Assembly (NCBI GenBank): GCA_002633005.1
Contig: NMRA01000979.1
Location: forward strand, 16,835-80,834
Direction: 5' to 3'
From: Phoronis australis
Lineage: Eukaryota > Animalia > Phoronida
DNA length: 64,000 bases
Within the stretch, counting starts at the first letter, position 1, and every line of letters begins with the position of its first letter. Shown here piece by piece: positions 427 to 25,400 of this stretch. A program made the position numbers and the translations under genes. Below the pieces are notes generated by a model that was not told where the DNA came from, ran no database searches, and saw nothing but the letters and a program-made list of their open reading frames with translations.

Positions 427-1334
427 NAATGAATATGAAAAGTGATCGCCAAGTGTTTTGTCGTTTCTTTTTCATTTACGTTGAACTCTGTGCATTTACT
501 AACAGAAAACCAAATGACAAACCATAACAAAGTGACCAACACATGTGACCTGCTGTCGTAATGCGTCCAGTCACGAGAATGCAGCCTGACCTCTCACCAG
601 ATGTTTTGTACTTTCCGATATCAATTGTCGAAAATTGAACTCTTCAATTTACAGATATTGCAAACATGAAATAAAAGAAATCATTTACACACTAACTTTT
701 ACACACACAGTATCTCTCTCATCAATTCATCTGTATCCATATTGATTCCATTTCTCATAATGGAATTTTTTGTAAGATGAATTCGCTCAAAGGAGATCGC
801 CGTTCCTTAGGCACGACCCAGCTGCATATGAGGTAACTAACCCCAGAAATAGCAAAACTCATGTGTTCGAACGAAACCAGGTTCCCGGGTCTTTCATGCT
901 TGTATTTGAAACGAACACGAAATTATTTTGGCAATTTCTCTGCTCCATTTGTGCGAACTCAAGATAAGTAGTAATCAGACTGTGTTCAAATGCATTATAC
1001 TGTAGTTTATGCATTTGGGTTTCTAGTTCAAGTTTGCACTTGAAAACCCTTATATTCGTGCTACAAAGTCAAGTAGAAACAAAAAAATTGGAGTTCCAAC
1101 TGGAACTTTTAGCCTTAATGTTGGGTGTATCAACCGCAAATTAGGACTAATGAATTATTCACGTAAGTCATTATGTACTCAACCATAGAATAATAGACAC
1201 TTACTTTGAATTCCCAAAAAGAAGAGTAGAAAATGCCACAGTTTATTTAATATAATTTTGAGAACCAATTCGAGTAAAACGTTTAGAGACCGAGCCCAAA
1301 GAAATGCAAGAAAACGTGTACTCACAGTGGTTAC

Positions 1335-1457
1335 CTTGAGTACTTCAAAAGTTCTTGTAATGTAATCGGGTTTCGTCTCCTTGCTAGTGAGCGTGACGTT
1401 GATGTGGCCGTATCTTTCCACCTCATGCGAGTCTGGCCAGTACTCTTCGCATTTTCG
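1335..1457 (-). CDS. Gene A exon 36, PTP D1 (KCEEYWP); alternative donor would extend it to 1326
   Basis: PTP motif 7. Confidence 0.92.
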
Positions 1458-4400
1458 CTATAAAAATGGTAGAAGGCAAGTACGTACATTTATATATTTA
1501 TTTATTCATGTATGCATGCATGTGTGTGCGCGCACCTGTGTGTGTGCATGTTTGTGTATTTGTTTTAAAACGCATAATTCTATTGGACATCTGATTCTCC
1601 AATAGGTGGAGCCTGAAGTTGCATCACTGAGACATGCAGTGCTCACCTTCCCGTTTTCGACAGGTTTGGTCAACATAACTATCCTGGTTACGTTTTCTTG
1701 CCACACCATTCGCCAAAAGTCTTTTACAGAGTGAGTATTCGGGCCTAGAAAAAAGACCAACTTAGCTCAAACCTCTTTCCAATTCAAAGTAACAGAAACT
1801 GAATTTTTAGATTAAAGAGAATAAAGTGGTACTGTTTTGAAAATCTGGGGAGAAAATTTGGAACACTTCTGCATAGAACATGTTCACGTCTTTTAGAGTA
1901 AGGCAGTAAAGGGTTTACCCGTGTGCTGTTGCTTAACATATTCAGGCCTCACCCATTGCAGCAATGAAGGCCCGGGGTTTCTTGTAGCCATTGATGTAGC
2001 TCGCATTGATGAAGTCCGAGTCGGGTTTATTCGTTAGATCAGGAAGAACAACACGGTTCTTGTCATCTGTGAATTCCAAAAATCAAGTTATGTTTGCCGT
2101 GTACAGAAATGCTTAAGCTGCTCTTGTAATAAAATTTCACAAAAGGCGAGCATCCAAAACCGTATCGTTTTAATAAAATCTACCACAACATCATATATAT
2201 CACATAACCTGTTAGGTTTCTGGATGATAATCAGGCATTTATATACAGAATGCATTTCATTGACCTGTTGGATTATTTGCATCATATGAAAACGATTTTA
2301 ATCAATATGACAAATGGAACCGACGGCATAGCTTGCAACAAAATAAAAAAACAAAAACAATAACAAAAAAGAGAATTACCTACTGACTCGTAGGCTTCAG
2401 GATTACATACCAGTAACTTTACTATAGCCTTTAAATAGCATTTTAATGTTTATTTCAATGAACTCATAAATGGCCGATTATGCGCCTTGCAGTTGGACAC
2501 AACTCTAGTTACTTGGTGTAGAGAGACTGTGTGCTATTTCCACCTACAGGGTACAATGTTGTTGAAACGATTTTTCCTCTTGTTGTCTTCCTTCAAAGCT
2601 GCATCTCTCGCGAAAATCAGACCACTAGGTAAATTCTAAAAGGATAACAAATGCGACACCTTTAAATTACAGTAAATAGGAAAAATCAGATATCAGTGAA
2701 TCTACTTTGGGCAAACTCACCTCAGAGTTAGTCAAAGTTACGACATGGAGGTCAGATGCAAAATTGCGCCAAATCAATGCAAACAACAAGTCATAGTTTT
2801 CTGTTGTTTACTGCTAGAACAAGTTTATCGGTGATAATATTTACTTCTTGCGTATAAAACGTGATTAATGGAAACTATAAGTCATACCCTGTATTCCTCA
2901 TCGAGATTGTCTTCGCTCTGTCTTCTGGCTACATACGAATCTAATTCATCGATAGGTATTGGTTTACTGACGTTGGAGTACACCGGCTCAGCGGGTGGGG
3001 GTGCAGTGCCCTTTGGTTTAGTTTGGGGTACTGACTTCTCCTTGGGTCTGGAAGGCTCACCTTGGGAAGTGTCCCGCAGATCTTTGAACGCGTCTAGTTG
3101 GAGGGACAAAACGAACATTTGTACCTGGGTTTTATATATCCCACTTCAACTTTGTAGGAGTTACGTCTTGTTAACCCTACCGTAGTTTTAAACATCATAT
3201 AGGACCAAAGCCAACAAATCGCCACACTACACTTTCAATATACCTATGTAAATCGTAAACTGGCATGGAAATGCAGGTGTAACTCGTTTTAAGACTTGTC
3301 ACCCCGTTACCTATTGGCCACACCACGTGACCGGTGGTCCCGATGGCTCAATGGACTAGAGGGTGTACACGGTTAGCAGATGGCAACGGGTTCAAGTCCC
3401 GGTTGAGGCAGAAATCTTTTCAGACTTATTTTCATTAGGTCACGTGATGTGGCTAACAGGTGGCATGCTGACCAGACTAAAAATGTTTGCTATTACCTTT
3501 TAATTTCCCATTAGGGGTACTTCGTTTACTGAAGCTTCGCCGAAGCTTTGCTTATTTACCTTTCCAAGTTAATAGCGATATCGAAGTTATCAATGACAAC
3601 AGATGGCGTAGATCATTCGTATTCTCAGAGGAATATCGAGTGGTAGGTTCGAGGCTGACTGAAAATTATTCTTCTGCCATTTACAAGTGTTCTTGACAAA
3701 GATCAGTGTCATTTTTCATCAAATATGATTATTTCTTTTTTTATTATTCTACGTCTATTGAGAATACGTCAGCTACGCTACAATAACAAGGAAAACGTTT
3801 TTCGAGTCTCTCGTGTTCTTACATCGTTGCCACGACCTCTACCGATAACCTGAACGAAGCTTCGCTTTTAAATCCTATTACTTTAAGCGAAGTTTTACTT
3901 ACAGATTAACTCACGGAGTTAACCTTTCCCATTTACCCAAACTTTGGTAAACGTGAACTTTGGCCTCTAATTGGAAAGCTACTTACAGTGTAAGTGAACT
4001 AAGTTTTAGTCATGCGGAGACTACTTGATCCCTTGCTCACAAGCCAAGAGCGGAATTTCTATTATGTGATATGTCACGCAGCGATTTGGTAGTGATCACA
4101 ACAACGATGATATTAATGCTATTTAGGACCTTTATGAACGACCTCAACTCTAAGTCAAACATCGAAAATACTATGCCTTTTCAACCATTAAAAGAATATA
4201 TGTTCGGAAAGGAGAAACATGGTTTTGAGACATAACGTAAAGTTTTCATTTAAAAATGTTTAATTAAAGTCGGTTGGGGTTATTTTGTTAGGATTGTACA
4301 TTTCTTGTACAACTTAAATGTGGTTACGTGACAATAATAAAGACACAACAGTAAGAAGCATGTATACTTTTAATGATTGGCAAAGATAGTTTTTCGATCT

Positions 4401-7400
4401 TTGACTTAGAGTTGAGATCGTGTATATAACCTTATGCAAAATATGATTTTAAGCATCCACTTACGGGAACTAGATCCTTCATTTGTAGATATATCATGCA
4501 TCGGCAGTTGATCTGATGATGAAGGGTTCTTGGACGCTTGTCGTCGTCTCCTACAGGTTGATGGTACTGAATTGTAAACAACACAGAACACACTCATGCA
4601 CGCAAGCACCCACGCACGAACGCACGCACACAGCATCTTCTAACGAGGTTTATTCATAACGTTTAATACATGATGCGTCATTAGCTTTTTCCATCAACAT
4701 TTGCAATACATGTATATTCAGTACTTTTAGAATGTCCACATAATCTATCCAATCACGTGTGAACACATGACAGGGTACCATTGCAGCTTCAGGTTCGTAT
4801 GATCAGATTTTCCAATATATCAAAATTATTCTATTCACACATCAAAATATATGTTGTTGAACAATTTCCAGGATTTTTGAAGATAATGTCTGCCCAGAGA
4901 AGCAAGTTAAGTTTGGTGCCAGTAATAATTGCTATCTGCAGTTACTGTCATCGTCACCATGACCATTATTATTATTATTATAATCATCACCATTACTATT
5001 TCTAATAGCACTATAGACGAATACACTAAAATATTCTTCCACTTATGTTATTGCTCACCTATAAAACACCAAGCCTATGATGACCAACACCAAAAGTACT
5101 GCAACAAATGAACCTATGCCAGCTCCTATCACGGTGTCTTTGCGCTCCTTTTTCCAGTTCCTTACTGAAAACACGTTTTGTAAAACTTAGTGATAGGAAG
5201 CCGTGAAAGTAACAGTAAATGTCAGTGACAATAAGAACAACTGAAGACATTTATTAACTACAGATAAAATTCCAATAGACAATAAAAAAGAGACAGTAGC
5301 AGCAGCGGCGGCTATGGCAGAAGAAGGCAGAACCAGACTTGCGTACCCAGCATTCTTTCAAGTCATGTGCGAGTACCAGCGAAACATTCAGCTGCACTAC
5401 AGGTTGAAGAATTTAGAGTCCCCTGATACGACGTAAAATGTAACAATTTCGTAAAATGTAACAACTGTTGAATTTTAGGAGAGGTTTAGCAACGTAAAAT
5501 GTAACAATGATGTAATAAAAAAATGTTACATTTTACGGCGTATCAGTGCCCCATTAAATGTTCTTTAAATGATGTCAGTCGGGAGCATTAGAGAATACAT
5601 CACTACCTTGGTGAGTTTCTGCTTCAGCCATGTCTTCAAACTGTAGGTACTGGTAATGCTCTTTCCTTTCCTGTCACGATTGAGGAGAATTGTTAGGCTG
5701 GATGACTCGATATTCATAACGTGACGAAGACATGAACAGATCAAGAGCGGAAAGCATCTCACCAGTGTGATAGCATTGTTGGCTTAAAATGGTTGCCATT
5801 TAAATAGATTTGTTTCACCAACACTACCATTACGCGCTCTTAATGTTTACACAGGAGGTCCATTCCTAGTCACTCACTAAGTTAACTCAGCGTACTTGAA
5901 GTAACTGCGTTGCAAACGGAGGTACACTAGAATACCTGAAAACTACTTGAAAAACACATCAAAAACTACACACTTTCAACAATACGTGGTTCCAACTCTC
6001 TTTGAATATAAATAGAAGAGCATAAAAATTCGTTTACTAGTCTGACAATTGACTGTCTAGAACCGCAAGGTTAAATTTGTAAAAGCGGTATTAAGCGGGT
6101 ACAAACACGGCTTCTGTTACAAAAAGGAGTTTAGATTGACACAACTTTACGTAATGGAATTGTTCTCAATTTTTTTCTTATTCATACATACGAGATTGAT
6201 TTATTGGCTTCAAGAGAACAAATGGCTCAAGGTTTGTTTTTGCTTGATACCAGACTTCACAAAATCCTTATCAATGTGCGTCATTTTATTCACCAAGCAG
6301 GGTCTAGAATGAAAATGAGCAATATGGTGAACATTTAGGGTATGAAGTTAAGGTCCTATTTGAAAATGTTTCATGCAACGAGGCACAAGGGACTCAACTC
6401 ACTGATGTACATGAAGGAGGAATTGTCGAACGGTATTAGTCAACCGTAATTTAAGACGACTTACATTCACTACGTCATTTTCCATGACGATACCAAATAT
6501 GAATCGATACCAATCTCCAGTTACCAGCTGTCCATTTAGGAATCCACCATAATGCTTCCCGTCTCCAATCACAAATATTTGTTCGTTGGCTACAGTCGTA
6601 AAGTTTGCTGTGATGTACAGGTCTGCTGTACCACCCGAATACCCATGCAAAGATTTGCTGTCTAAGTCGATGTAGCTTCGTCGACTCTTAGATGACTGCT
6701 TCGCTCTTTCGACAACAACGAGATAGAACCTATAAAAGCATAAGCCTATCCTTAGGATTTAGAACACAACACAAAAATAGAAGTGCGTATGAATTACATC
6801 TGAATAATGAAAAAAACGTGCATTTCCGGCGGATTACTATTGTTTAATTTGATCTTACGTTCCACTCAACTATTTCTGAAAAATGTTTTAAATCTCAGTG
6901 TAGCAGTAGTACAACGCTTCAGATAACTTATCCACTTAATGGCTAGTTAGTGAGTTATTCGGTGTATTCTATTTATAACCTGTCACGTGATCATAATTAC
7001 ATAACTAAGCCTTGATTCAGTAACTTAAAGTGGCAACGTAACATTCACTTTCTAACTTAAATCTTTTAAGATTTAACTGACTTAAAAAGTCAGTTTTTGT
7101 GAAACCTACGCCAGGAGGGATATAAAGTCTATGAACACAATCGTGTCCACATAGTCTAAATGACTGTTGCTCACTTAATGTTGTCTTTATTTGGGTAACC
7201 TCTTGGAGGAGACAAGACCACCTTCACGCTGTGCTCTGTCATGTCCTCCTTTTTGATGACTGGCATGAGAATCTTTGGAACGTCTACAAAGACAAGAAGA
7301 AGTGATAAATACTGGGAATTAGTGAACACGTGAATAACTAATGTAGGCCTACGTATGTAACACTTTCATGAATAGAAACTGTTCACTTGCGAGCATTGCA

Positions 7401-10400
7401 GAAACCATATACTTACGCATGGGTTTCCTGAATTAAATGCCAGGTCATATAAAAGAAGGCACAAAGAATACTGTAGCCAATGATCAGCTCAAAAAGCGCT
7501 GAAGCTACATCGGAAATGTTTCACAATTTTGTGCACGTAAATCAGAAGAATGAGGGAAACACTTGTTGAGTGTGCCAGTAGTAGCCACATCGAATTCCCT
7601 TAGGTATTTTGGAAAAAAAGAACGATCTTACCTGATTATTTTTGCGTTTTATTACCTTTACCTAACAACGACGAATCAAACCACTTGTTATCTTGAACTC
7701 TCAGGCTTTGACTAATGACGTCATATTATAATTAGCAGTGACCTGAATGTCACCCAATGAGCGAAGTGAAAGCTTTAGTCCACGAGTTGACCGCTATGTG
7801 GAAAATGCAAAATGGCTGAGTGGCAAGCGATAACTAAAACGACGTGTCTTCGAGTGAAAAAGTTCTTTTGAAGGGTTTGATTTGCAGGAGGTTGCACCCG
7901 CCTTATTATTTTTGCAGATAGATGCTCTCACACGATTGTGATTTCGAATTGTTTAGGTTGACATTTGACGAGCAATTCGCGTGTGATAGGTATGACAGCA
8001 AATTGTACACTATCAATGTACAGATTTCCGGTTTAGCGACTAAGCAGACTGCGAAGCTTCGGACAATTATTGCCTTAGTGAACGGTAATGGGTGTGGACA
8101 GACATTTCTGACATAATGATACATTTTTGCTTTACCTGGCAGTGCTGTCCAGCACGTTATCTTGGCGGACGATCCCTCTCCAGCCGATGTTCGGGCAGAC
8201 ACGTGAATTTCATAAGGTGTGCCAGCAACAAGATTCGACAATACCGAGCTAAGGTTGTAGGTTTTCGCACTCTTTTGCTGTGGCCATTTTATCTGAAAGT
8301 TGAATTCCGTGAGTGTGAAATATTTTTCCAGAAACAGGAACCAAATTCTTGCCTATGTCTTTTTTTCGGCTTGAGCTGGGGAGCCGAAGCTTTGCATAAA
8401 ACTTCAGAATTTTCCTACCAGCAAATGCTGGAGTAGGCGCTGCGCAAAAATTGTTCAACGCTGCACATCAGTATTTTCCGATTGTGCGTCAATTTCTCGC
8501 CCGACTGATGTATTCCGCAGGGCCGAGTTTTTTCACTTTGGAGATGTGTATCGAATTCTACTAAGATGCCGATTGGGGAATATTCCCAGCGCCTACTATA
8601 AACGTGCTTGAATTCACACATGTAAGACCTTGACTCATGTCTGGTCAGCTCAGGAAGGCCATCTTTACATACATTATTTAACGCCTCGTCACACTTCACT
8701 GGACTATATGTAAATGCAACGAGAGTGGAGAAAAATGCTGTGACGGCGCCGAAAATGTTTGGGCTAAAATCTTATAATATGAGCACCAGCTGTATTTTTG
8801 AGCCGCAAAGTTTGAAATTCCTGCCTCTTTTGGGAAACGTGTTTGAGGCTTGTTTCCAAGAAACACAAAATATTAAAATACCCCTTGAAAACGGACACAA
8901 ATGAAACCAACAACAATATATTTCAAAAAAAAAAAAATAATAAACATCATGTCCATGAATTTAAACCGAATGACTATTGTCTGGTCTGCGGAAACTTAAG
9001 AGTCAACACATCCAGACGAATGGTGGCTGTCTACGTAGTAGTGGACGCAAGGGATGAGAACACAGAGACACGTGCATGCACTGAGAATCTTCTCTGTTCT
9101 GCCTTTAAAAAAGATTTTTAAAGCTGTACCATTTAAATTCCCATCTTTGAATATTGCGTTAACACATTCTTCATCTTCAACACTTCAGCCTAACGCAACC
9201 TATCTACGCACAATCAATTAGCCGAATAGCTAATTAGGAGACTTTCATGTTTTACCTTGTAATCTAGAATGATACCGTTTTTGACTAGAGGCTGAGACCA
9301 CGTTATTCTGACAGAAGTCTGTTTGAGGGATGTTGAGCAGGTCAGCGAACCGGGTTCACCCGGAGCTGCAACAAGAACACATTTTTTTCCAATTGATACA
9401 TTCACTGGAGGACAATAATAAAATGTTACAAAAGAGTCATTAGCAATTGACTTGATTTGTTGTGAATCTAAATTCATTATGAAGAATACACATCATGTAT
9501 ACAGTACAAATAAAAACTAACAGCTCCTTTTCAGATGATACACTCGGTTTTAGCTAGATAAAATTAGTTTTGCCCAATAGGTTGCGCATGTTGTAACAAC
9601 ATTTTCTGTTGCCCACACTGCAGTTTGAGAAAAGAGCACAATGGTATTAATGTGGTCGATCAGTATATTTTAATCGTATGGAATCAAGATAATGGATAAT
9701 CGTTGGAACACACCCTGTCACATTTGTTGCAGGTCTACATCTATGAATTCTTACCAGATTCTTGAATCCTTTCCTCTACAAAAGGACTCCATTCTCCCCA
9801 CTTGACAGTTCGGGCTTTAACCTGCAACAGGGTTGACATGGAAACTGTAGTGAACGCAAACGAGAACTGCTCCGAAGTGGGGAGACTACACCTAAGGTGG
9901 TCTCAGGTGGCATAATTAAATGAAAAAAGTGACGTTAACGTCGTCCCCTATGGCGCGCCGCTCATGTTTTTTCTTATCATCAACACCCATCGTCATCGTA
10001 AACATTTACCGTAAGTGTCGTGTCGCCGGCACCACCATTACCACCGTCATGCTCACAATGTCTTGACTTATGCATGTATTACATGCGTGGCATACGCGTA
10101 TGCTATACTTACCCGAAAGTTGTAGTTTACATATGGTCGAAGACTAGGAAGCGTAATTGTTGTACAGTTTTCGCAGGTTGAACTCCCTTGATGAGTTGAG
10201 TTATCCGACAGCCCAAGTAAAGCACGGTCGGTTTTGTTACTGATCTCGTAGGAAACAAGGTATCCAGTGACTTTTCCTCGGGGTGGACACGGTGCATTCC
10301 AGGAAAGTTTAACTGCTTCGGGATTGCTGTCCACCACAGAGAGATTGGTCGGCGCTATCGGTGCTGTAGTGACATAACAGAAAGTACCATGTTCTTACGT

Positions 10401-13400
10401 GCTATAGTATTTTCAGAAAAAGAGCACTGCGATTATCTGTACGACTTAGGGGTCGCAGACCAATCAGGTGTTTAACAAGAGTTGTAGTAAATTGGTGGGA
10501 ATTAATCGCATAGTGCTTCAACTATAGTACGAGATGAATTCTCCCTTCCAACATATCTATGTCAACGCTTTCCGAAATACAACCAAGAGCACGACGTAGC
10601 CAATGTTAGGATTGTTGCAGTCAGAAACCGGTGTTACCTACCAGTGCTGGCTTTAATCTACATGTATGCTTTGTCAAGTAACGGGTTTCAAAGAAATCTG
10701 AATTGTTCTACCTTCACAGCTGCTATGGAGCTTACCTGGATCGTAAAATGATCATTCACTGATCTACTCACTTGTGAGTTGCCAATCACAAAATTTGGAA
10801 TCCCAATTTAAAAAATTGTCATTAAAAAGTCAATTTTCAAAACGACCACGTTTCAACTTCAGCAAATTGAAACCTTTGGAGACTACACTAGTTTTAAACA
10901 GGTCAGTAGGTGAGTTGAAACTGGCTAAATGTGTTTTTTACTTTTGACGTCGTTTCTCAAATCGTGTCATCAACTTTTTGATAGAAGACTACCAATGATA
11001 AAACGTCCTGAGGAACAAAAGATTTGTGTGTTGGTTTGAGCAATGCAACTATCCACGATAAGGCTTTGATTTCAATTACACATTGTGGGGAAATTTGTGT
11101 TCCAAGGGGTAACTACCTACTCTAAAGTATCTGCCAATAGTTAATTACAATCAAGTTGTGTTTGTAGATTGTCGCAGCCGAAAGTGATACGCTAGATCGT
11201 GTATGGTAGTCGGAAAATGTGAGGACGATAACATGTTTCGTCAAAGCATGGGGGCTAGCACTGGCTTGTCTCGTTTGTCGCAAAATATATGTAAAACACA
11301 ACAGTAGAAATTTACACATAATATTAAATATTGACATTAAGTACGCTTAGAATAATTTGATGAACTTCGACCTCTTAACAGCACAAATTGGGCCAACATT
11401 GAGTATCAAAAATGCATATTTTCTTTTAAACCCTCAAAAGTACCAGGTTAAAGAACACAAAGCATTATTAATGGAACAAGAAGACGAACTTTTTAAAATA
11501 ACTTCAAGCAACAGAGCCTTCTAATGGTAGGGCTTTCGGGATAGAGAAGATCCCGAGTCGCACTTCAAAATATAAAAGTATAAATCTTCGAGCCAACTAA
11601 CTGTCCAGTTAATCAACTGCCCGTATTCCAACTCACCACTCTGATCTGTCGTAATGTTGATCCAGTCAGTCCACGGTCCAGCCAACTGTCGCACCGACGC
11701 CTGAACTCTGAATGCGTACTCTGTGTACGGCGTCAGGTTTAGGAAAGTGATATCACGACTACCTGTTTGATTTATGTAGACATTAGCCAAAACGCACGGA
11801 CCGTTTTCGTTACGTATGCTGTATCTGTAGTTGCTTACATTTCCATTTTGTTTCATACATTCGACTTCGTCCCATGTAAAGGACAATGACGAGTTCGATT
11901 TACTGATCAAACTTGCGTTTCGTGGAGGTGCGAAAGGGGCTGAAAAAAGAACGTACATGAATAGCACTGTCACTAAGAGAACTCACCCACTAACAGTATA
12001 CATTTTACGAACGGTGACAAAACAAGGACCTGCATACACTTGGGAAATTGGACAGATCTATAATAAAAAAGCCTCGTCAGTGAGATTGTGTTTTTCGGCT
12101 CAGAATATTTGGGTTATAGACCATTCATAGAACAGATCCTTACTACAGTAGGAAATTCGTCAAACAACCCTAATTCGTCATGCGCGGGACCAACACGAAC
12201 GTTAGTCCAGATGACATACAGTACTATCAACGTCTCTTCGGGATGCAAACTGTGCTGACCAAAGACTTAGATTCCATGTGAACTTACCATTTTCTACACT
12301 AAAATATCGGTTACAACCACGCAATGACATTGATACGATTGGCAACTGAAAAGTGCACGAAAATTCACAAATGTTTATGCAAATTAGAAGACTGACATCT
12401 AAATTCCCAATCCTGTGAGTTTCTAGGTCTGGCAATACCTTCACGAATCAAACAGTCCTATTCATCATAAAAACACAGTGGATCTATTTAAAGACAACCA
12501 AACTATTCGAAAACATGGAACATCTTGAGAAACCAAAATTACCAACAACTGTGTAATGCAGTTGGATCTATCCGAAAAAGCAGCAGGAGCTGGCGCCCCT
12601 CAGCCTAGTAGGTCAACGTATTGTGTAGTATAGCTAAAATAACTCCTACATCGCGTGTATCATAAAATTGTCAATAGACGTGGTGCAGAAATCATCTCGA
12701 TCTGAAAAAGCAGGAGTGAAAATAAATCTGACTAAACGGTGGAAGCTTTATAGGGCGTATACAAAGCGACTAATCTTTTAAAAATTGACTTTTATTCCCG
12801 TGCAATCCTGTCTTTTATTACCCTTTTCTTGTGTAGTGACATTCATCTTCTCAACATGCCCAGTTAGCGTTGGTCCCACTGGAGCAACTTCAATGACGTA
12901 TGAGGAAAAGGGAAATGCTTTCAACGATGCCTGATCTTCGTTTACAGACATCCAATTCGAAGAAACTTCAGAAGATCCAGGACACTGAGATCTAGACAAC
13001 ATTCTGTATCGCCATACATATCCCCTCAGTTGACATCCATCGTCTTGTGCTGGCGACGTCCACTTGATATGTAATTCGTCATTCAATTCCTCAGTTTTTA
13101 GTCTTTGAACTTCACGCAGACGTTCTTCTTGCGAGCTAAATATTGATTCAATTGTCCAAGGTCCGGGACCTGTCGCTGTGTACGCCCGCAATATCACGGA
13201 GTAATTTGTGAACGGAGAAAGGTTTGATAACCAAATAGATGTATTCACTGTTGTGTAAGTGTTTTTGAGGAATGCCACTGAACACCCCGTCGACAGCGTT
13301 GTTAACCGTACACTGTAATTTGTTATTATGCCGTTCCGTAAAGTGCAATCTGGTCGCAGCCATGACACATGGGCAGACCTGGCGGAAGCACTGATGCTGA

Positions 13401-16400
13401 CATTTTGTGGCCCAGTAGATGGCGCTAAAATAAACAGTGAAATTGAGTGAAAGACAAAGACATTGGGAAGCATAATAGCTCAAATCATGCCAAGACAAAA
13501 CTATATCATACAACTAGATGCATGTTCGTTTTAATGTTTCAAAAACACATAAACTACATGTACAGTTTATTATGGCTTCAGAAGCCGATTACTGAATACT
13601 TAGCAAACTACCATGCATGAACTATATCAGTGTCACCAATTTTTCGACCTAGTAAGTGTCACCAGAACGCATTCACAACAAACATAAAATGTAGAGCACA
13701 ACCTGGAGGAGGTATTTCAGTTCACTAATTCGTTAGAAAACGAACACCCGAGAAAATACCAAATATGAATTTACCCCAAACGACAGTTGTTTCATTTAAC
13801 CATTGGATATGATACCATGGAGACCCAAGAACACGACGAAACAAAACTTGAGTAGTAAATTACCTCTCGGATGGATAAATGGCATTAAAAATGTCAGTGT
13901 ATGAAAGGCAACACTAAATGAATGGATATGTGACCGGTGGAAGGAGGGAAAGCTAGCGTTAGGCACCCACAAGAGGTGTTGTATATGGAGGTAGAGAAAG
14001 GAATAAACCTTCACCTCTCACATATTTAAGCCAAAATGCGATTACCTTCTTCTTGTGTAGTGACATTCATCATGTCAACCTGCCCAGTTCGCGTTGGTCC
14101 CACTGGAGCAACTTCAATGACGTATGAGGAAAAGGGGAATACTTTCAACGATGTCCGATTTTCGTTCACACACGTCCAATTCGAGAAAGCTTCAGAAGTT
14201 CCAGGACACTGAGATCTAGACAACATTCTGTATCGCCATACATATCCCCTCAGTTGACATCCATCGTCTTGTGCTGGCCCCGTCCATTCGATATGTAATT
14301 CCCCATTCAGTTCCCCAGTTCGTATTTTTTCAACTCCACTCAGACGTTCTTCGTGTGACATAAATTTTGTTTCAATTGTCCAAGGTCCAGGACCTGTCGT
14401 TGTGTACGCCTGCACAATCACGGAGTAATTTGTGAAAGGAGAAAGATTTTGTAACAAAACAGACGTATTCACTGATTTGTAAGTGATGTTTACGAATGCC
14501 ACTGAACACCCCGTCGACAGCGTTGTTAACCGTACACTGTAATTTGTTATTATCCCGTTTCGTAAAGTGCAATCTGGTGGCAGCCATGACACATGGGCAG
14601 ACCTGGATGACACACTAATGCTGACATTTTGAGGTTCAATAGATGGCGCTACAAGAAACAGTGAAATAATGTCAATGACAATTACAATGCGAAGCACAAT
14701 GGCTCACATCACACAAAAACCACAAACACAATAACCTAAAAATAGTTATATCGTACAACTCGATACATTTTAATATTCAAAACAGCACATAAGCTACAGT
14801 TGATCATGACTTAAGATTCCCATTGCTGAATGCTTAGTAAAATATCAGACATAAACTATCACCAATTTACCAATCTAGAAAGTGCCACCAGATTGCATTT
14901 ATAACAAACAACAAATGAATAACATAATCTAGAGGAAGTCTTTCATTCACTAATCCTGAGAAAACGAGAACCCGAGAAAACACCAAATGATGAATTTCCT
15001 CCAAACGACAGTTGTTTCATTAATCATCCGATATGAAACTGTGAAGACCCAAGACCATTACGAAACAAAACTTTGAGATGTAAATAAGCTCTGGGAGGGA
15101 TAAATGGCATTAAAATGTCAGTGTATAAAAGACAACACTAGACAAATGGATATGTTAACGTTGGAAGGAGGTAAAGCTGACGTTAGGCACCCCCAAGAGG
15201 TGTTGTATATCGACCATGAGAAGGGAATAAAACTTCAGCTCTCACCATTTTCAGACAAAATTTGATTACCTTCTTCTCGTGTAGTGACGTTCATCATCTC
15301 AACCAGCCCAGTTCGCGTTGGTCCCACTGGAGCAACTTCAATGACGTATGACGAAAAGGGGAATACTTTCAACGATGTCTGATTTATGTTCACATACGTC
15401 CAATTCGAGAAAGCTTCCGAAGTTCCAGGACACTGAGATCTAAACAGCATTCTGTGTCGCCATACATATCCCCTCAGTTGACACCCGTCGTCTTGTGAGG
15501 GTGCCGTCCACTGGATATGTAATTCGCCACTCCGTTCCTCACTTTGTATTCTTTTAACTCGACTCAGACGTTCTTCGCGTGAACGAAACTTTGATTTAAT
15601 TGTCCAAGGCCCGGGACCTATCGCTGTGTATGCCCGCAATATCACGGAGTAATTTGTGAACGGAGAAAGGTTTGGTAACAAAACAGAGGTATTCACTGTT
15701 TTGTAAGTGGCGTTTACGAATGACACTGAACACCCCAAAGACAGCGCTGTTAACCGTATACTGTAATTAGTTATTATACCGTTCCGAAAAGTGCAATCTG
15801 GTGGCAGCCATGACACATGAGCAGACCTGGCAGAAGCACCAATGGTGATATTTTGTGGAGCAGTGGATGGTGCTACAAGGAACAGTGAAAAGTGTCATTG
15901 ATATGGATTATGAGAAGCGCATAGGCTATAATCATGCACATACCATAAACCAATTAACTTATCATTAGACAAATCATACAAGTATGTATCGCAGCAATAT
16001 AAATATCCTAAGTTTTTCATTGTTGGTTGGTCTTCAAGCATAAGCTAACAATGTCACTAATTTTGCCAATATTTTATTTGTCATCGAAACAAATTCACAT
16101 CGATTGCGAATGAGAAAATCCTTCAAACGGAATTGTTCATTTTAATCAGTTTCTGAGATATTTTCAAGCCACACGATCATGGGAAGACGATACCTAAAAG
16201 ATTTACTACCAACCGGATAAATGAGTATCAGGAAGAACCACCGGTGTATAAGAAATAGCAACAATGAACTGAGCAGCATATGAAAGGTGGAAGGACTTTG
16301 GGCACCCAAAAACGGTGCTTTACGAAGCATCAGAAACGAATAAAATTTGGTTTACCATCACTCTAAATGAGAATTTGATTACCTTCCTCCTTCGTAGTGA

Positions 16401-19400
16401 CGTTTATCTTCTCAACTGGCCCAGTAAGCGTAGGTCCCACTGGAGTAACTTCAATGGAGTATGTGGAAAAAGGGAATACCTTCAATGATGCCTGTGTGTC
16501 ATTCACATACTCCCATTTTGAGACAGGCTCAGAAGTTCCAAGACACCGAGATCTAGACACCAACGTGTATCGCCACGCAAACCGCTTCAGTTGGCACCCA
16601 TTGTCTTCTGGAGGAGACTTCCAACTAATATGTAGTTTTCCATTGCGTTCGAAGGCTTTTAATGTTTGCACTCCACTCAGACGTTGTTCGTGTGTAGTAA
16701 ACCTTGTTTCAACTGTCCAGGGCCCAGCACCTCTTCTTGTACACGCTCGCACTCTCACAGAATAATTGGTGAACGAAGAAATGTTTGAAAACAGAAACGA
16801 CGTATTTGTTGTTTCATAAATGATGTTGATGGATGAATTTGAACACCCTGCGGAGAGTGTTGTTAACCGTAAATAGTACTTCGTTATTACCCCGTTGCGT
16901 GAAGAGCAATTTGGTTGGAGCCATGACACGTGGGCAGAGCTGACTGAAGCATTAGTGCTAACACTTTGTGGAACACCAGATGGAGCTAGAGGGAATATAG
17001 GAAATGATGATGCAGAGTATTAGGAGTGATGTATCTATGCCATCTACATACCACAAATGTACGAGTCCTCATCAGAACCTGATCAAAGTAAGCCTGCAAA
17101 CTATAAACATGACAAATGGAGCCTCGGGACCCTGTAGTGTGAGATTGTCAGAAATCTAAGATTTCTAAGATGGATACGCATGAAATCAATATGAATTCCG
17201 CTGACCCACGCGTGGAAATTCTGCAGTCCCGGACTAAAGATTAGCATACACTGATTCTCAGATATCAGACAAGATGAAGCAAAATGATGGTATCTTTCCA
17301 TATTTCAAAAACTAAAAAAAACTGTTAAATTATAATAAGGCTCTCATTAAAGTAAATAAGGAACAATGACGGTTTCAAGTATATGTCTTGTTTGTACATT
17401 CTTCAAGCTCACCATCTTCAAGAGTAACTCCCTCTATCGACCTTTCTTCGCCCATAGATTCTGTTTTAGCCACAACCTTGATCTCATACTTAGAATTTGG
17501 CTGGAGAGCAGTGATGTTCTTCCTGGTCGATTTAAGAATTTCTTTAACTTCGTTTCCAGTTTGCAAATCTGCACACTGCACCACTTGAACCAGGCTATGC
17601 GTTAACTCGTATCCCATGATGGAACAACCATTATCTTCGGGTTCCTTCCACATAATCACCATAGAGCGGCTGGTTGTGTTGGAGGGATGTATAATTAGAT
17701 TCTGTACGGGGCCTGGTGCTAGAGAACAACACACAAAAACTAACTGAGTGTTTCAATAACTCGTACTTAAGATAACAACATGATCAAAATGTAGGGTGCA
17801 AAATGAATCAAGACTAATCAGCCTATGTGCATTTTTGGCACTGAGAATGAACAACCTGACAATGTTAATCCACTAGAATAACGTGTGAAGTGGATTGCCA
17901 TCGTCGTGACTGTGATACCGCGTGAACATTCCTGAAAAGCTAGACCAGTAAACAAACACAATGACAAAGGAATATAGGCACAGCAGATGCAAAATTGAAA
18001 AAAGCGACACCAGTCGGAATAATTGACTAAAGTCATCTCCATCGCTAGAGAAATACCTCTATTCCTGCTAGTAATGGTCTTTTCATCGGACAGGCTTGAC
18101 ATGTGTTTATTGAAGGCTCTGATTCTTACTCGCCAGGTGGTGCACGCAGCCGTATACAGTGAGGTACTACTCGATGTAACGTTGGGCAACATAATCCACT
18201 TGCTACCTGTTGTTGTGTTGATATACTCTATTACATAATAGCCAGGTGTTCCGCATCTCCAGTTAAATAGGTCAACCTGAATGTGTCAGAAAGGAAATGG
18301 ATTATACATGAACATGAAAAGAGATTTCGCCAATATTAATTTTCTTGAAGGAGATCGTTATCTTTTTGAAGGCCTCATATTTTCATTTTGACACATTTTA
18401 CCTAGGTTAACAGGTATTATGAACCTGACAAAAATTACCGAAACCTTTGTAGATTTGTAATGTAAAGCTTATGGGCTAGAGGTTACCTTGCTATACCCCG
18501 GCCACTTTCTGAGAGTTTAATATATCAACTCAGATGACATATGATATTCATGACTTTTTACGACCAGATACAGTAATCAATGCGAGAATTCCAACATACG
18601 TTGGACATGAAAATGTCTGCAGTTGGGCATCGTGTGTACATTTTAGCCACAGTATAGACTAGTTTAGAGGTCCACAACAATTCTAGGTCGAGTTCCTGTC
18701 ATTCTATAAGTGACGTATATCAATGGCCAGTCTTCAATATCGGCCTGTTAAACGTCCTGGCGACATCACTAGAAAGACGAGTACGCCCATCAAGTTCTGC
18801 TTGAACAAAGACATGTTGTTTGAACGTTTGAAACCAAACGAAATACGAGCATGGATCCACTTACATCCGTCGCTGACCTAACGACCCGCGTGACGACAAC
18901 TGCGTTCGACATATTGGTGCCGTCACCCGGATCTTCTAATATAATGCTCAGATGAACTCGGGCACTTACTGCAGACTGGATACAGTACCCAACATGATTG
19001 TTAATTAGCAATGTTTTTTAAATGAAACAAATCTTACCAAAATGGTTATGTTAGCCGAGTCAATCTCCCTGTTTGACAATGTGAACTGGGGGGTTTCTGG
19101 TTCTGAAATGCATAATTTGATTGAATATCACACAATAAATGCAGGAACAGTAATGCAAAAATTACACTTTGTCTTTCAACCACACTGGTCTTTATGTAAA
19201 ATCCCAAACTTTCCTGACTTTTTTTACGTTTTACAGGCTTTTTTTCTTGTAAATTGTTATTTATGTAAACACCATTGTGAAACAAGGCTACTACGTTCGT
19301 ACCATCCCGATCGTAGCATCACACTTACCCTAGAACGGAGCTTTAACCACGCATCTGAGGACATCATAAATCAAGTAAATCACGTGACTTTCAAAGTGGG

Positions 19401-22400
19401 AAATAACTAGCGGGATTACTTTCATCCATGAAGGGAATCGAGGCGTCGGAAATATCCTTGATAGTCCGGATTCTAACGTACCTGCGCAGACTTCTACTTC
19501 AGGACTTGCGTTCCCAAGGAGATCATCTCCAATCTTGATCCGTATCCTTACTTTGTATATCTGGGTAGCGTTCGCTTTCGAGATATTGCAAGTAAAAACT
19601 GTCTCATTCCTAATATTGACAACTTCTTTTGATAGCCAGCTCTTATCATCCTTCTGTTTGTACTCAACAACGTATTTTTCCACATGTCCCACGCCATGGC
19701 CAGTCCCACTCCGCCACCGAGTCCACCGGATGTATAAAGCTTGCCCTGTTCTGGTAACGACAGTCGGAGGTTGCTTGAGTCTGGCGATTTCTGTAAAGAG
19801 GTATATTCAAAGAAAAGTAATCTCTAAGAATCATGTTCTATTAAGAATCAGACGATGTTTTGTTCGTACATGTACAATAAACTAGCGGTCGATTAACCTT
19901 AAAGCAAATACTTAGGCGGCAGTAAAGCTACCTTCCGTCAGAGAAATCCACCTCTTATTTTTCAGACTACTTGCCGTTAAGAAGTTGGCGAAAATTTATT
20001 GCAGCTTTAAATGATTTAAATACTGAAATACGCTTAGCATACTTAATTTGATGTCATTTCATGTTATACTTAATTATTTTGATGTCATTTCATGTTTACC
20101 AACCTGTTCGACAGTATGGGTATGTCATGTACCCAGGAGCACAAGCACCATCTGGACAGTGACCAGTATAAGGACTACAGGTGGCGTTACTGTCACAATG
20201 GCCGCACGTCTGCTCACAGTCAGCACCGTAATATCCATGACTGCAGCCTTAAAAGTTAACCCACAAAATAACAGGACATGCAAACAAAAGTTGACAGCAT
20301 TTGACCAAGAAAAGGAAACCACTTTCTTTTATTCACCATATTTGTAACCAACTCAACATTATTATCAAGATTCCAAAATATTGTTCCTATATCTTGTTTT
20401 GAGAAACTTCATCAAAACCTATTTAGGATTTTCTTTCTTGTTTCTTTTTTGTGCACCTGTAGTGTATTTGAGCTTGCAAGAATTGAATTATTGCGGATAA
20501 ATAAAACAAAACAAAAATAATATATGTTTTAGGCTGCATTGGGAATTTCAGGGTCACTGCTCTACAATTAATTATTTTAGAGAAGTTACCAGATGGGAAC
20601 CTTAATTACAAGAGATAACAATACCCAATGTGTAATTGAGTATCGAATACTAAGTGGCAGACCGCAGTATAAAACCAAATGAATACATAATATCAAATGG
20701 GTATTGACCGATTGCCTACCAAGTGGCTCGAGCAAAACGGCAAATTCAATAATAAGTACCAACTGGGTGCAAACTGCCAAATGGGAAATATCACTGACAT
20801 GGCTGCAATTACAAATTGAATAGCTTGCACACGAGTCTGGTCATTTCAGCAGTCAGAGCTTGAAACTTTTTTTAAAAGAACGACATTGTACACCTGGGCC
20901 TGAGAATTAATCTATACTCGAAGCTCGACCTGAAATTTGATCAAGTACAGTGCTCTTACAAAGTAAACTTTCAAATTTGTATTGAATAGGAGTCTGATTT
21001 GAGTTTAAAGAACTCGATGTCTCGGTCTGTGTACAACGCAGCACACAATAAAATACCAATGCAATTTTGCATACAATAAATGGTCACAAACCTTGACTGC
21101 ACGCCATTCCCTTGAATCCAGCAACACACGAACACCCGTATGGATCATTGGTACACACATACTTTCCTCGACACCCGTCCACGTGACCGTCTTCCGAGCA
21201 GGAAAATGAGCAGTTACTTCCAAATCGGTTGCCTCCACAACCTAACGGCGCAAAAGAAGTATCTCCAGTCAGCTATTAGTGCTTTTTAACGATAACACTA
21301 TCTTTCAACAAAAGTAAAATCGCAATTGCCAGGGCAAGAAAACTGACTGGATTTTGGCTCCTCAAAACTGTTTTTAAGTTATTTAACAAGCACAGTGTAG
21401 CTCAGTTCAAATTGTTTGTGAAATGAGAGTTTATGTAAGATTACTAATTAGACGAGTTGTCGTTAGAAAGCAAGAGACGACTGTTCTCGCCAATCTTCAG
21501 TGCCATGTTACCTTTGAAGGAGGCGTGATACCTCCGACGTTATAAGAGTGTTTTTTGCGAGTATTGCCCAGCAGACCTGATTGAATTCGAATTCAATGAT
21601 CTTTCCCGGATCGATCAACACCTACATTTCATTAATCACGTGGTCATTGTCATTGAGCTGGTTAGTTAGTAGTATTTGCAGTAGTGTAAGGTAGTGCTTA
21701 CGTTTTATAGTGACTTTAAGTAGGCCTACAGCCTGCACATCAATTCCAACAACATATGAATTGTAATAAGAATATGTACACAGACCGAATTAGGCCATTT
21801 GTCATTCAACACACGACAGGAGAGCAATGAAGAAAGTATTAATATAATTAAGTCTATGCTTCCACGCGGACTTGACTAATCTTGAAAATTATCCATGACA
21901 AAGGTGGAATATTAATGTTAGGCACTAAGTTAATCATAAACTGAACCATCAAATGTTGCAATCCATCTTAATTGTGAATGAGATACAACATACACGTAAC
22001 CTTTCATAGACAGCAGTATATGACATGTTATCCCATACGCGTTGAATCTATCGAGGGAAATACGGACATTTAATATTCGTTTTTGTATTCACCTGCCGCA
22101 CTACTTTAACAGTGACCTCTGACATGGATAGTTCAAAAGCCAGGTAGGGCAATGTCGACTCGACATCGTTAGGTGGTTATGTAATCAAACTTTCCGAAAA
22201 TAGCTTAAAGTGATACAATTGCAGCGGTGTAAATAATACTCAACATGTAATCAGGTCTCAATCGTAACATCTGGAACAGGGTTGTTAATTATATGACAGT
22301 TCTGTCTCAGTTTTCATTTCCTAATTATTATATCGTCTGCAACTAAGGTGCCGATTCCTCGGTATCTACGATATCAAATGTTGTTTTTATTTAATTATTT

Positions 22401-25400
22401 TCAGTAGACGTTACAAGTTCAGTGCAAATTTGCCGGTGTTCTCCTCCCTGTTATCTCTTTTCAAGTAATACATCGTTACATTTAAAACTGTTTCTTTTGC
22501 TACAAAAACTTGCAACCTAACGCACAAGTACATACATATAGGATGTGATCCGCCACGTGAGCAGTCTGAGTGAAGTATTTAAAAAATCTGTGGAAAACTG
22601 AAACAAACTTAGGAATTCGAAGCGTATCGACATTATTCTGCATTTCGACCTCGACCTTCGGTCTCGGTCGATACGCAGAATAATGACTCGTAGGATATTA
22701 CATCATGTACGCCACTCTTGGTGCGCTTTGTGTATTTATGTATGTCATAACGATAAGTTTCCATGAGAAGATTAAGAGTTACAGCCCTATGCTTGGCCAA
22801 TAGGGAGCGCTGGAAACGTGACCTATAATGTTTTATACATTGTGAGTTGCATGCCAATGCTTGAGTAAAATATAATTGTTTATGCGAATCATCACGTGCT
22901 TTCACCTATCGAACAGATATCTCCGCGAAATCCCGGGGGGCATATACACTCGCCCGTGATGTCGTGACAAACACCTCCGTTCTCACATTGCGGACAGTCG
23001 TCTGTGCAGTCGCCACCAAATCTACCTCGACGGCAAACTAGAAAATGAATTGAAATCAGATTATACAGAGTCAAAATATTTACATTACACCCTACTGACC
23101 CTCAGTTACGGATCTTAAATCTTACAGTGTGACGGGACATTGAAGGAGAATGTCAGCCTGAAAGCAACCTATTTTTGTATCAATTTAAATCGAGTAGTTC
23201 CACTTGATAATAGCCACTACAGCTCTGTTACTTGACACCTGACGACAGACGGAGGTGTTGAAATTAATTAATGACGTCAGAGGTTTGAACACAGTGAAAT
23301 CACTGTCGGTAAAATGCCGGCCACTGACGGATACGGAGAAGTTTCACGGCCTCACACTTGGTATTAACGGCGTACGTTTCCTTTATCGTTACTGCGAGCT
23401 TCTTTCGGAGCATTATGGGCTCTCGAGGAAATCGAAAAACGATATACCAGCTTTCTTCGCAGCTTCATAGTTCGCACAAGCGGGAAAGATACACCACACC
23501 ATTGCGTCACTCACTCTGCAGAAGAACCATTGACGTAGCGGCATCGTTTCTTATCTCCCTCACAGGTTAACGCGGCAAATATCGACTAGATAAGATTGAC
23601 CGTATACGAGGTTCTGCTGGTATAGACCGATTAAGACAGTAAAAAATACTAATTAAATCGGGTGGCATTCTCCTTTAATGACGCTCTGACCTTAATGCAA
23701 GCATATTTTTTAATCATACCACACAGCACTGAACCCAACGTCGATTATTCAATCGTGCAGAGCTATTCAGAACAATTTGCTTTGTTACAAAATGGAAAGA
23801 TGTAATGTATACAAATATGATTTGTTAAAACATTGTTCCAGACATAAAAAACATAGTTGAAGAAGACCTTGTAACAATTTTTTTTTAACAGCGATACATA
23901 TTTTCAACCTCTAACAATTAGTCGAGTAATCCCAAGCACTTCTCCACTTGACAGACGGATGGTGTAGACTCCACCGTGTCCCTCCTCTACGCTGTCGATG
24001 CTGTTTGTTAGACTTCCCTGCCAGCTACTTATGTATCCCTCATTGTAAAATCCTTGGTTGTCTTTTTGCCACTGTATACCTAATGGGCCTATACCGTCGA
24101 ATGTTATTGTTGCGCGATCTCCGACGCTAACTCTCGTTGCTAGAGCGCTTGAAGCTTGTAAAAGATCAAGGAAACCAACATGTCAGGCTTATGAGAAACA
24201 AGCATTTGCCTTAAAGATAAAATCAAATATTTTATTGATGCTATCATTGAGTAGGCCACATGTTGAGCATGGAGATATAAAATCGACAAAAATGAAATTC
24301 AACCGTTTTCGAACTGGACTATGTTGAGATACAAGCACAAAACTGGGACATACGTGTATACTCACTTCATTTCAACTGCAATCTGTTTCAATTTTGGCTA
24401 AAACTTGACACCGATTTCTCACCAAACTGACAAAATTGCGACAGCATATTCCAAAAATATACATGTACAACATTAGTAAACAGTTAGGGGTAAGGTGTAT
24501 TAACTTCACATAAAACTTCCACAAAGCTTTGACAAAAACGTCTTTATTATTGCGACGAAGGTTCGATTATGCTGCCAACTAATTTTGTCAAGATGGTAGA
24601 GTTCTGTTAAAGTTTGTCTAGTTTATTTTTGAAATTACTATCTACTCAAATACCTGCAATCACTGGTTTCCCCCACACTTCCACTTCACACAAAGAAAGC
24701 GTTTCTGATTTGCTGTTGCCATTCTTTATGATGTACAGATATCTCCCAATGACGGGACGGTCACAAGCTATATACACTGTAGTGGCGTCACTAATGTTGC
24801 CGGTGTGGTGTTTGCACAGAGCGTCGGTAGAGGTCGCTGATGGAGTGTCACTTGTATTGGAGACCCGGACTTCAAAATCTTTTAAAGATTCGTCAAGATC
24901 TGGATGCACATAGCAATTCTTATTCATAATTAAGTACATGTACCATAAAATTGATATCAATCTGAAATTGTTATGACGAGCACGGGAATACATGTATTTT
25001 CGTGTAGATGCTCAAATACTTTTCGTGTTCTGCTGTTTCAAAAAGAGTACTTTCTGAGTACGGAGTCTCACTCTATGTCGTTGTAGTCCACAGAAATCCG
25101 CTTTGAAAACCGGGTCTGAAATATTTCTCCGTAGCTAATTAAATCTTATGTCACACACACTTAATGGCACAGAACTCAAGTCCTGGAATATCAACTTCGG
25201 TCTGGCGTTGCTGAGGTTACGCCACGCATGCGTGGCATTTCTTTGCATGTGTTTGTTCCGGTGTTGCTCATTCCTGTGGAACTTACTGGCTCTAAAACTC
25301 TTTGGAAATCTGCCGCTTTTCAACTGAATTGCAAAAAGTCATATTACTAGAAGGACTTGAAAAATTGTTGATGGTGAAGACCGCAGCAGAAGCAAACGTT

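Follow-up and report, generated by a model that had tools for sequence, protein, structure and literature searches.

How a module known from the Tie (angiopoietin-receptor) kinases comes to stand on a receptor phosphatase, and what such a protein would do, is the question raised by a gene of the phoronid Phoronis australis. The gene lies in a stretch of 64,000 nucleotides from contig NMRA01000979.1 (assembly GCA_002633005.1, positions 16,835 to 80,834); the whole stretch is called the window here. An earlier note had described a Tie-type ectodomain joined to a protein tyrosine phosphatase (PTP) and had proposed a chimera of Tie and a receptor PTP (RPTP), acting in a paired system of kinases and phosphatases. 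Our analysis points to a Tie-type Ig2-EGF1-3 module and an RPTP encoded in one chain of exons, to the same layout in many echinoderm and chelicerate proteins, and to sea-star kinases and phosphatases with closely similar ectodomains. The interpretation that we weigh below is that the window gene product would act as the off-switch among paired receptors, Tie kinases and phosphatases with a common ectodomain; we give it about an even chance of being right.

Six-frame translation and splice-site reading found all the motifs named beforehand on the minus strand, where the earlier note had placed them. From the Ig exon to position 1335 the gene is modelled as 27 minus-strand exons in one open frame (24154 to 1335), in agreement with the earlier count of exons 10 to 36, and every intron of the predicted chain is GT-AG. 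The chain built from sequence only had a single phase break, located before the transmembrane exon. RNA reads supplied the missing exon of 64 nt (5670-5607), which repairs the break, and with this exon added the proposed phase-consistent Ig-EGF-FN3-transmembrane-PTP chain was borne out. A 31-exon model, comprising the 27 exons and four upstream ones, encodes 2362 residues with no stops. The predicted order is an Ig domain, three EGF domains, up to 14 FN3 repeats, a juxtamembrane domain of RPTP type, a transmembrane segment and the N-terminal half of the first PTP domain (D1). The Ig domain lacks cysteines, is of Tie Ig2 type by its profile scores and ends TRLIVR (23909-24154). It is followed by Tie-type EGF1 (22906-23037) and Tie-type EGF2 with DPYGCSC (21092-21241), both assigned by structure matches to Tie2, and by an EGF3 of the invertebrate Tie-block kind (20104-20247), assigned by alignment to the EGF3 of Tie-block members. 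Thirteen exons (8136-19790; joint 8292/9256 seen in RNA) hold the FN3 repeats, which were recognized by Pfam and by pattern: seven of the 14 pass the Pfam cut-off, two are weak matches and five rest on pattern only. The long juxtamembrane domain spans 5607-7283 in three exons (7283-7175, 6729-6465 and 5670-5607); it has a weak Pfam match to PTP_tm (E 0.045), and all four of its flanking joints were seen in RNA. Next come the transmembrane exon (5059-5164), recognized from sequence and with its joint 5164/5607 in 17 reads, the cytoplasmic juxtamembrane exons 4550-4465 and 3093-2888 (together 2888-4550; joint 2635/2888 in RNA) and the first four exons of PTP D1 (1335-2635; four joints in RNA), three of which score above the cut-off for PF00102. 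Pfam also confirmed EGF1 and matched the Ig domain weakly. The gene runs past the window start in the middle of D1, and the region of the catalytic cysteine motif lies beyond the window.

The FN3 stalk includes four tandem 603-nt exons with two FN3 repeats each (16985-16383, 15872-15270, 14648-14046 and 13424-12822). These exons (12822-16985) share 73-89% DNA identity with each other, and two 621-base introns between them are identical at 487 of 603 positions. Because the tandem exons and their introns are so alike, the FN3 exons appear to have been duplicated recently within the gene; since all four exons are of phase 1-1, exon skipping could vary the length of the stalk.

The gene is transcribed. 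Three RNA runs from the same species and one contig set were aligned to 1250-21249, using about 20% of each raw run, and the aligned reads were mostly 90-99% alike. The aligned stretch ends at 21249, and the Ig, EGF1, lectin, kringle and LCCL exons lie above it. Nine of the 24 predicted introns of 1250-21249 were found among the 15 of 34 RNA joints listed, five of them running from the last FN3 via the juxtamembrane domain to the transmembrane exon and four from the juxtamembrane region through the PTP. In runs X1 and X2, most bins that hold exons were covered on a single strand, as expected for minus-strand RNA, with depths of 1.5 and 1.85 in the first FN3 bin and of 2.6 and 2.9 in the EGF3 bin, the latter including some repeat reads. 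The same data bear on whether two genes have been read as one, namely a secreted or anchored Ig-EGF-FN3 protein and an adjacent FN3-PTP gene. Such an arrangement would fit the fact that the joints above 9256 and the transmembrane-to-juxtamembrane joint are outside the 15 listed, and family members that lack catalytic domains do exist. We consider it very improbable, however, because the phases are unbroken, no second signal peptide, transmembrane segment or terminal exon was seen in the chain, one-strand depth is similar along it, the 19 unlisted joints compare with 15 expected among them, and many relatives show the identical domain order. Unbroken phases, RNA joints and one-strand depth thus argue against the possibility, raised in the earlier note, that the ectodomain and PTP exons belong to different genes. 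These exons likely form one gene, and a single transcript likely spans the chain, the RNA evidence being partial rather than end to end. Two intronic repeats also attracted reads. The repeat at 20674-20785, a copy of an element highly expressed elsewhere, had almost 500-fold RNA coverage on a single strand, by reads of 90-95% likeness; the repeat at 3340-3490, with reads on both strands and tRNA-like loose ends, is probably a short interspersed element.

Several lines of evidence identify the Ig2-EGF1-3 block as Tie-type. Against solved structures, Tie2 was the best match of EGF2 (E 1.9e-5; the runner-up had 0.3, and SCARF1 was absent), and EGF1 matched Tie2 with E 4e-9 over a single full-length stretch, with SCARF1 at 0.0044. 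EGF3 had no match in PDB or Pfam; it aligns to the EGF3 of Tie-block members with 29-51% identity. A hidden Markov model (HMM) of vertebrate Tie Ig2 scored the window Ig at 11.5 bits (best of 500 shuffles, 10.0), an HMM of invertebrate Tie-block Ig2 scored it at 43.7 bits (best of 500 shuffles, 6.2), and HMMs of Tie Ig1 and Ig3 scored it below 0. When aligned with Tie1, Tie2 and the invertebrate members, the block lines up with them throughout, column by column; identity to the vertebrate Ties is 50-57% for EGF1, 40-47% for EGF2 and 14-28% for the Ig (11/77 to 21/76), and the usual Ig cysteines are missing from the window Ig, from Tie1/Tie2 and from the invertebrate members alike. By these comparisons the window Ig is predicted to be a divergent Tie Ig2. 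A word-based search using the EGF2 exon gave no candidates. The alternative of generic EGF repeats of the MEGF/SREC type that merely resemble Tie draws on the missing Tie2 matches of EGF3 and, in pairwise search, of the Ig, and on WIF1, which heads the EGF1 structure list only through summed repeats. It is hardly credible given that EGF1, EGF2 and the Ig end stand in Tie order and match Tie1/Tie2 column for column, and that SCARF1 trails Tie2 by six orders of magnitude for EGF1 and does not appear among the EGF2 matches. The earlier assignment of the block to Tie, rather than to MEGF10, SREC or laminin EGFs, is upheld by search ranking, the trees having been built without MEGF10. A quick tree placed the window block with sea-urchin PTPs at 97; a mixture-model tree dissolved this grouping, which we attribute to long-branch attraction. 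The mixture-model tree, in which the bootstrap had not settled, leaves the window block unplaced.

The window gene shares with vertebrate Tie1/Tie2 the order of a Cys-less Ig2, EGF1, EGF2 (DPYGCSC) and EGF3, followed by an FN3 stalk and a single transmembrane segment. Unlike Tie1/Tie2, it lacks Ig1, Ig3 and a kinase, has up to 14 FN3 repeats versus 3, has an RPTP-type juxtamembrane domain, and has lectin, kringle and LCCL exons upstream. Tie2 Ig2 binds angiopoietin. Binding of an angiopoietin-type fibrinogen domain by the window Ig is putative, the two Ig domains being only 14-28% identical. The earlier claim of a Tie ectodomain therefore stands for the Ig2-EGF1-3 module, which the predicted product bears, and not for the whole Tie ectodomain, Ig1 and Ig3 not having been found by HMM.

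The window gene has the layout of a classical receptor PTP, with an ectodomain, one transmembrane segment and a classical PTP domain. Further evidence on the enzyme came from an upstream tandem paralogue on the minus strand (54696-63598), modelled as 13 exons with D1 and a second PTP domain (D2), 537 residues with no stops and all introns GT-AG; its last exon was not found in the window. The paralogue is identical to the D1 part of the window gene at 109 of 141 residues (77%). In its D1 the catalytic Asp, Cys and Arg are all present and the active-site motif is intact, with WAD in place of WPD. The nearest fetched PTP to the window gene, P0102, is 44-49% identical, and when P0102 was compared with single-domain structures, PTPRT (2e-95), PTPRK and PTPRM led the ranking, with VE-PTP at 1e-64. 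Accordingly, the earlier suggestion of a likeness to VE-PTP and the R3 class is not supported: R2B structures outrank VE-PTP, and the paralogue and relatives have D1-D2. The phosphatase is by prediction of the two-domain R2 kind and not VE-PTP-like, with the D2 of the window gene lying beyond the window. In common with R2A and R2B RPTPs (LAR/PTPRF; PTPRT, PTPRK, PTPRM), there are tandem D1-D2 domains and an FN3 stalk, and a Fn3_PTPRU domain in members of the Tie-block family adds to the R2B likeness. Unlike these RPTPs, the window gene has no MAM domain and no three-Ig LAR head; the MAM domain had no match in the 27 segments scanned or in family members, with the 5' end of the gene beyond the model. 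The likeness to R2B is one of search ranking. R3 phosphatases have an FN3-only ectodomain and one PTP domain, according to the part of PMC5336234 covered. VE-PTP (PTPRB) is described in the part covered of PMC7959691 as a receptor phosphatase restraining Tie2. As a receptor phosphatase that brakes Tie2 it is a functional analogue; VE-PTP does not carry the ectodomain of Tie, whereas here Ig, EGF and lectin exons are in frame. Because the structure ranking and the R3 domain layout differ, VE-PTP serves as an analogy only.

These data also bear on a catalytically dead decoy, in which the receptor would bind its ligand and act as a sink or scaffold with an inactive D1. The active-site exons lie beyond the window, the paralogue has WAD instead of WPD, and nine sea-star Tie-block models have no catalytic domain, all of which would be consistent with a decoy. 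The 77% identical paralogue nevertheless keeps its catalytic residues, D1 Cys and Arg are kept in 23 of the 24 family rows shown, and the part of D1 inside the window is intact; we regard a dead enzyme as improbable.

The combination found in the window gene is not unique to it. When EGF2 was scanned without a profile against 1.84 billion representatives, 104 matches were obtained, and the 60 of at least 300 residues were classed: 14 had PTP motifs, three had kinase motifs and 43 had neither. All 14 PTP-bearing proteins are RefSeq models from a brittle star, sea stars, a sea cucumber, sea urchins and crinoids, with automatic names that liken them to PTPRT, mu, kappa, delta or F or leave them uncharacterized; two PTP domains are present in 13, the remaining model being partial. 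Two further searches, seeded by one sea-star kinase and one spider phosphatase, were followed for the best 120 of 202 and the best 120 of 211 matches. Among the matches listed, spiders and ticks add proteins with LCCL, Tie block, FN3 and PTP. The EGF1-EGF2 pattern is present in 276 of the 344 fetched proteins, isoforms included, of which 66 bear a PTP, 157 a kinase and 53 neither. The 66 phosphatases comprise 28 from sea stars, 13 from chelicerates, 10 from urchins, six from sea cucumbers, three from brittle stars, two from crinoids and four unnamed; the 157 Tie-block kinases comprise 15 from sea stars, two from amphioxus and 140 that are vertebrate or unnamed. Example models are XP_038066610.1 (Patiria), XP_022101762.1 (Acanthaster), XP_030852447.1 (Strongylocentrotus) and JTE90_011806 (spider). 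The four unnamed phosphatases, of 1741-1933 residues, come from contigs of 5502-6506 bases compared with coding lengths of 5226-5802. Because the contigs are only about 170-960 bases longer than the coding sequences, we read them as transcripts, which suggests that the design exists at the mRNA level.

The window gene has the layout of the Tie-block RPTP models, with Ig2-EGF1-3, FN3, juxtamembrane domain, transmembrane segment and PTP in one chain. The models have D1-D2, with an F5/8C tip in sea stars and an LCCL tip in chelicerates; unlike the window gene, those inspected keep Ig1, and their closest PTP is only 44-49% identical, which points to a lineage for the window that is not represented among them. 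The earlier claim of a chimera thus holds in that a Tie block is joined to a PTP, and fails in that the case is not singular, 66 of 276 Tie-block proteins carrying PTP motifs. The expectation of similar models in invertebrate deuterostomes was realized in all five echinoderm classes, and chelicerates have them too. The Tie module appears to be mobile, because it is also joined to EGF arrays, a ZP domain and a C-type lectin. Among the side observations, two tandem Tie blocks occur in one protein in P0006, P0137, P0145, P0146 and P0244 (Patiria), P0005 (sea spider) and P0246 (amphioxus), and in P0156, P0033, P0153 and P0026 the Tie block stands with a ZP domain, with EGF arrays or behind a C-type lectin.

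The proteins are already public under misleading automatic names; as Tie-ectodomain phosphatases they are not described in the literature searched. Neither a Tie-ectodomain phosphatase nor ectodomain sharing between echinoderm kinases and phosphatases was found described there, subscription papers being mostly outside its coverage. Work on sea-urchin phosphatases by Byrum (2006) reportedly distinguishes receptor PTP groups specific to sea urchins and may cover some members, and choanoflagellate receptor kinases and phosphatases are said to share ectodomains (Manning, 2008). The parts covered of PMC8662651, PMC4342544 and PMC7959691 likewise describe no Tie-ectodomain phosphatase.

Evidence for pairing comes from sea stars. 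The kinase domain of the Patiria kinase P0034 is of Tie2 type (E 1.8e-83 versus 9e-69 for FGFR1), and over residues 175-520 it shows 90, 89 and 89% identity with three phosphatases from its own scaffold, compared with 68-74% for six other kinases located there. When P0034 was compared with P0118 in windows of 100 residues, identity was 75-95% to residue 900 and about 20% after the transmembrane segment. Another accession of a Patiria model with phosphatase neighbours is XP_038069022.1. A kinase/phosphatase pair in Asterias amurensis (P0143/P0142) is 82-97% identical over eight windows, with 620 of 776 positions identical in a partial-length alignment. Thirty-four blocks from sea stars, a subset of a larger tree comprising 15 kinases, 14 phosphatases and five proteins that are neither, were placed on a tree of their own. 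The kinase label was clustered there no more than by chance (values as low arose in 127 of 500 shuffles), and the topology test rejected a kinase clade (p-AU 2.2e-5). The juxtamembrane domain of the window gene matches 12 sea-star kinases, 18 phosphatases and three other proteins, and none of the 140 vertebrate or unnamed kinases; sea-star Tie kinases are thus predicted to wear an RPTP-type stalk. Both kinases and phosphatases of sea stars also begin with an F-type lectin domain. Because the kinase and phosphatase ectodomains are 80-90% identical and interleaved on the tree, the simplest reading suggests repeated exchange of ectodomains between neighbouring tandem genes.

Candidate exons for a membrane-distal tip lie upstream of the Ig exon of the window gene, all on the minus strand. 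The C-terminal half of an F-type lectin or F5-8C domain is encoded at 24654-24899 (PF22633 positions 46-89 of 91, E 0.012) and the N-terminal half at 30428-30667 (PF22633 positions 1-38 of 91, E 0.013; family HMM, E 6e-6). In a profile of 23 relatives, the joined halves cover 15-139 of 140 positions and score 36.7 bits, compared with 24.9 and 7.2 alone. Other lectin halves were not found in a scan that was insensitive and missed the known C-half too. The sugar-binding motif of F-type lectins is His...Arg-x-Asp...Arg; in the alignment the His is kept, and the Arg-x-Asp and last Arg positions are changed. Between the lectin halves is a kringle exon of phase 1-1 (29428-29634; PF00051, 51.9 bits with a cut-off of 34.3), which sits in the loop of the sugar-binding motif; its matches are plasminogen and HGF kringles, and the kringle motif occurs in none of the 344 fetched relatives. 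Further upstream, a candidate exon with an uncertain 3' end encodes half of an LCCL-like domain (35850-35998). An HMM of the N-termini of chelicerate and myriapod Tie-PTP proteins detected it with E 3.3e-7 among 2857 six-frame segments, and an LCCL-only HMM with E 2.4e-6; there is no Pfam match. It corresponds to the second half of the domain, as in chelicerate and centipede members. Candidate exon X (31464-31727; phase 1-1, 87 residues) is perhaps a degenerate LCCL: four of 1000 shuffles score as high against LCCL, and no Pfam or Atlas match was found. A signal-peptide exon, the N-terminal half of LCCL and Ig1 were not found upstream in the window. The LCCL, lectin-half and kringle exons may be spliced into the same RNA as the rest of the gene.

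If the window gene product acts as the inhibitory partner in such a family, a common ligand would draw kinase and phosphatase into one cluster, where D1 would dephosphorylate the tyrosines that the kinase has phosphorylated. The stalk of 14 FN3 repeats would set the reach of the receptor and could keep the enzyme out of close contacts. The variable tip (LCCL, lectin fold and kringle) would set specificity, probably in immune or coelomic cells. The D1 activity, partner kinase, ligand and cell type assigned here to the window gene are all predictions from sequence. Tie and Tie-like transcripts are high in the coelomocytes and axial organ of sea urchins, according to the part of PMC6494969 covered. 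In the part covered of PMC13409769, a Tie-2-like kinase and a PTPRF-like phosphatase, which may or may not belong to the Tie-block family, were both found in starfish coelomocytes. There are parallels with paired immune receptors such as LILR, Siglec-5/14 and KIR, which have clustered genes, near-identical outsides and opposite signals inside. One difference is that the immune receptors recruit kinases and phosphatases through immunoreceptor tyrosine-based activation and inhibition motifs (ITAM/ITIM), whereas each Tie-block partner carries its own enzyme.

A number of observations weigh against this reading. Residues 175-520 of P0034 are 88% identical to the same-scaffold kinase P0120, about as close as to the phosphatases, and the sea-star pairs come from automated gene prediction in tandem arrays, where exons could have been mis-joined. 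No kinase motif, and with it no candidate partner for the window gene, was found within the 64-kb window. In the window gene itself, HMMs find no Ig1 or Ig3 in the model segments; an invertebrate Ig1 HMM run on six frames of the window gave nothing at E < 1, although assembly gaps could hide an exon. Pairwise structure search with the Ig exon did not match Tie2, giving weak matches to VEGFR2 and phage proteins only. The RNA joints listed include neither that from transmembrane segment to cytoplasm nor any above 9256, the Ig/EGF joints among them. None of the 15 fetched chelicerate Tie-block proteins has a kinase, among the matches listed. In unrooted PTP trees, which had no outgroup, no reference RPTPs and no spiralian, hemichordate or amphioxus PTP rows, the window PTP groups with chelicerate rows against 17 echinoderm rows (100/98, and 99 in another tree). 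The claim of a paired system in the earlier note thus finds support in the shared ectodomains of Patiria and Asterias models and meets a difficulty in the window, which holds no kinase motif.

The chelicerate data fit more naturally with a stand-alone RPTP of R2 type that retains an old Tie module and has no kinase twin. Its tip would sense microbes, matrix or neighbouring cells, it would act on junctional or immune substrates, and pairing would be a speciality of sea stars. Besides the kinase-free chelicerate proteins and the PTP trees, this interpretation draws on the LCCL half that the window gene has in common with chelicerates, on an array neighbour in the window that is also a phosphatase, and on the named echinoderm rows, where kinases came only from sea stars among the matches listed. 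Kinases may, however, have been missed, since only the best 120 of 202 and 120 of 211 matches were followed, and sea urchins have Tie kinases, according to the part of PMC6494969 covered, as does amphioxus. We hold the stand-alone interpretation to be a serious contender, with somewhat less than an even chance of being correct.

Elsewhere in the window, a THAP-like element is present in two copies of opposite orientation (33099-33534 and 54889-56067), which share an identical translated stretch and each run into an assembly gap; the copy at 33099-33534 has a weak Pfam THAP match (E 0.0056). Several overlapping open frames of 70-160 residues occur on both strands at 42473-43341, with no convincing family match, and the open frames at 42658-43135, 38840-39187, 34213-34458 and 33668-33850 had no Pfam match.

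A broader history can be proposed tentatively, although taken as a whole it is on the unlikely side. The Tie module would first have stood on a receptor phosphatase of the common ancestor of bilaterians, and deuterostomes would have grafted a Tie kinase onto the module. Clusters of kinase and phosphatase genes would keep swapping ectodomains, yielding paired on/off receptors that each have their own enzyme, and shuffling of the tips (LCCL, lectin and, in the window gene, a kringle in the sugar loop of the lectin) would diversify recognition. Vertebrates would have retained the kinase alone, with VE-PTP recruited as its brake, and the window gene would come from a lineage outside both sampled groups. 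The phrase "instead of a kinase", used in the earlier note, may have this history backwards. What the window gene adds on its own is less, namely a further member whose tip is unusual. That the Tie module occurs on the phosphatases of chelicerates and of every echinoderm class changes the picture of how Tie signalling evolved. Most receptor phosphatases are orphans, and the means by which one of them is directed at a particular kinase is an open question; a kinase-phosphatase pair with the same outside would provide a direct test, with the same ligand and opposite enzymes. Given that immune cells of echinoderms express Tie-like kinases, these proteins may constitute an unrecognized, expanded family of immune receptors.

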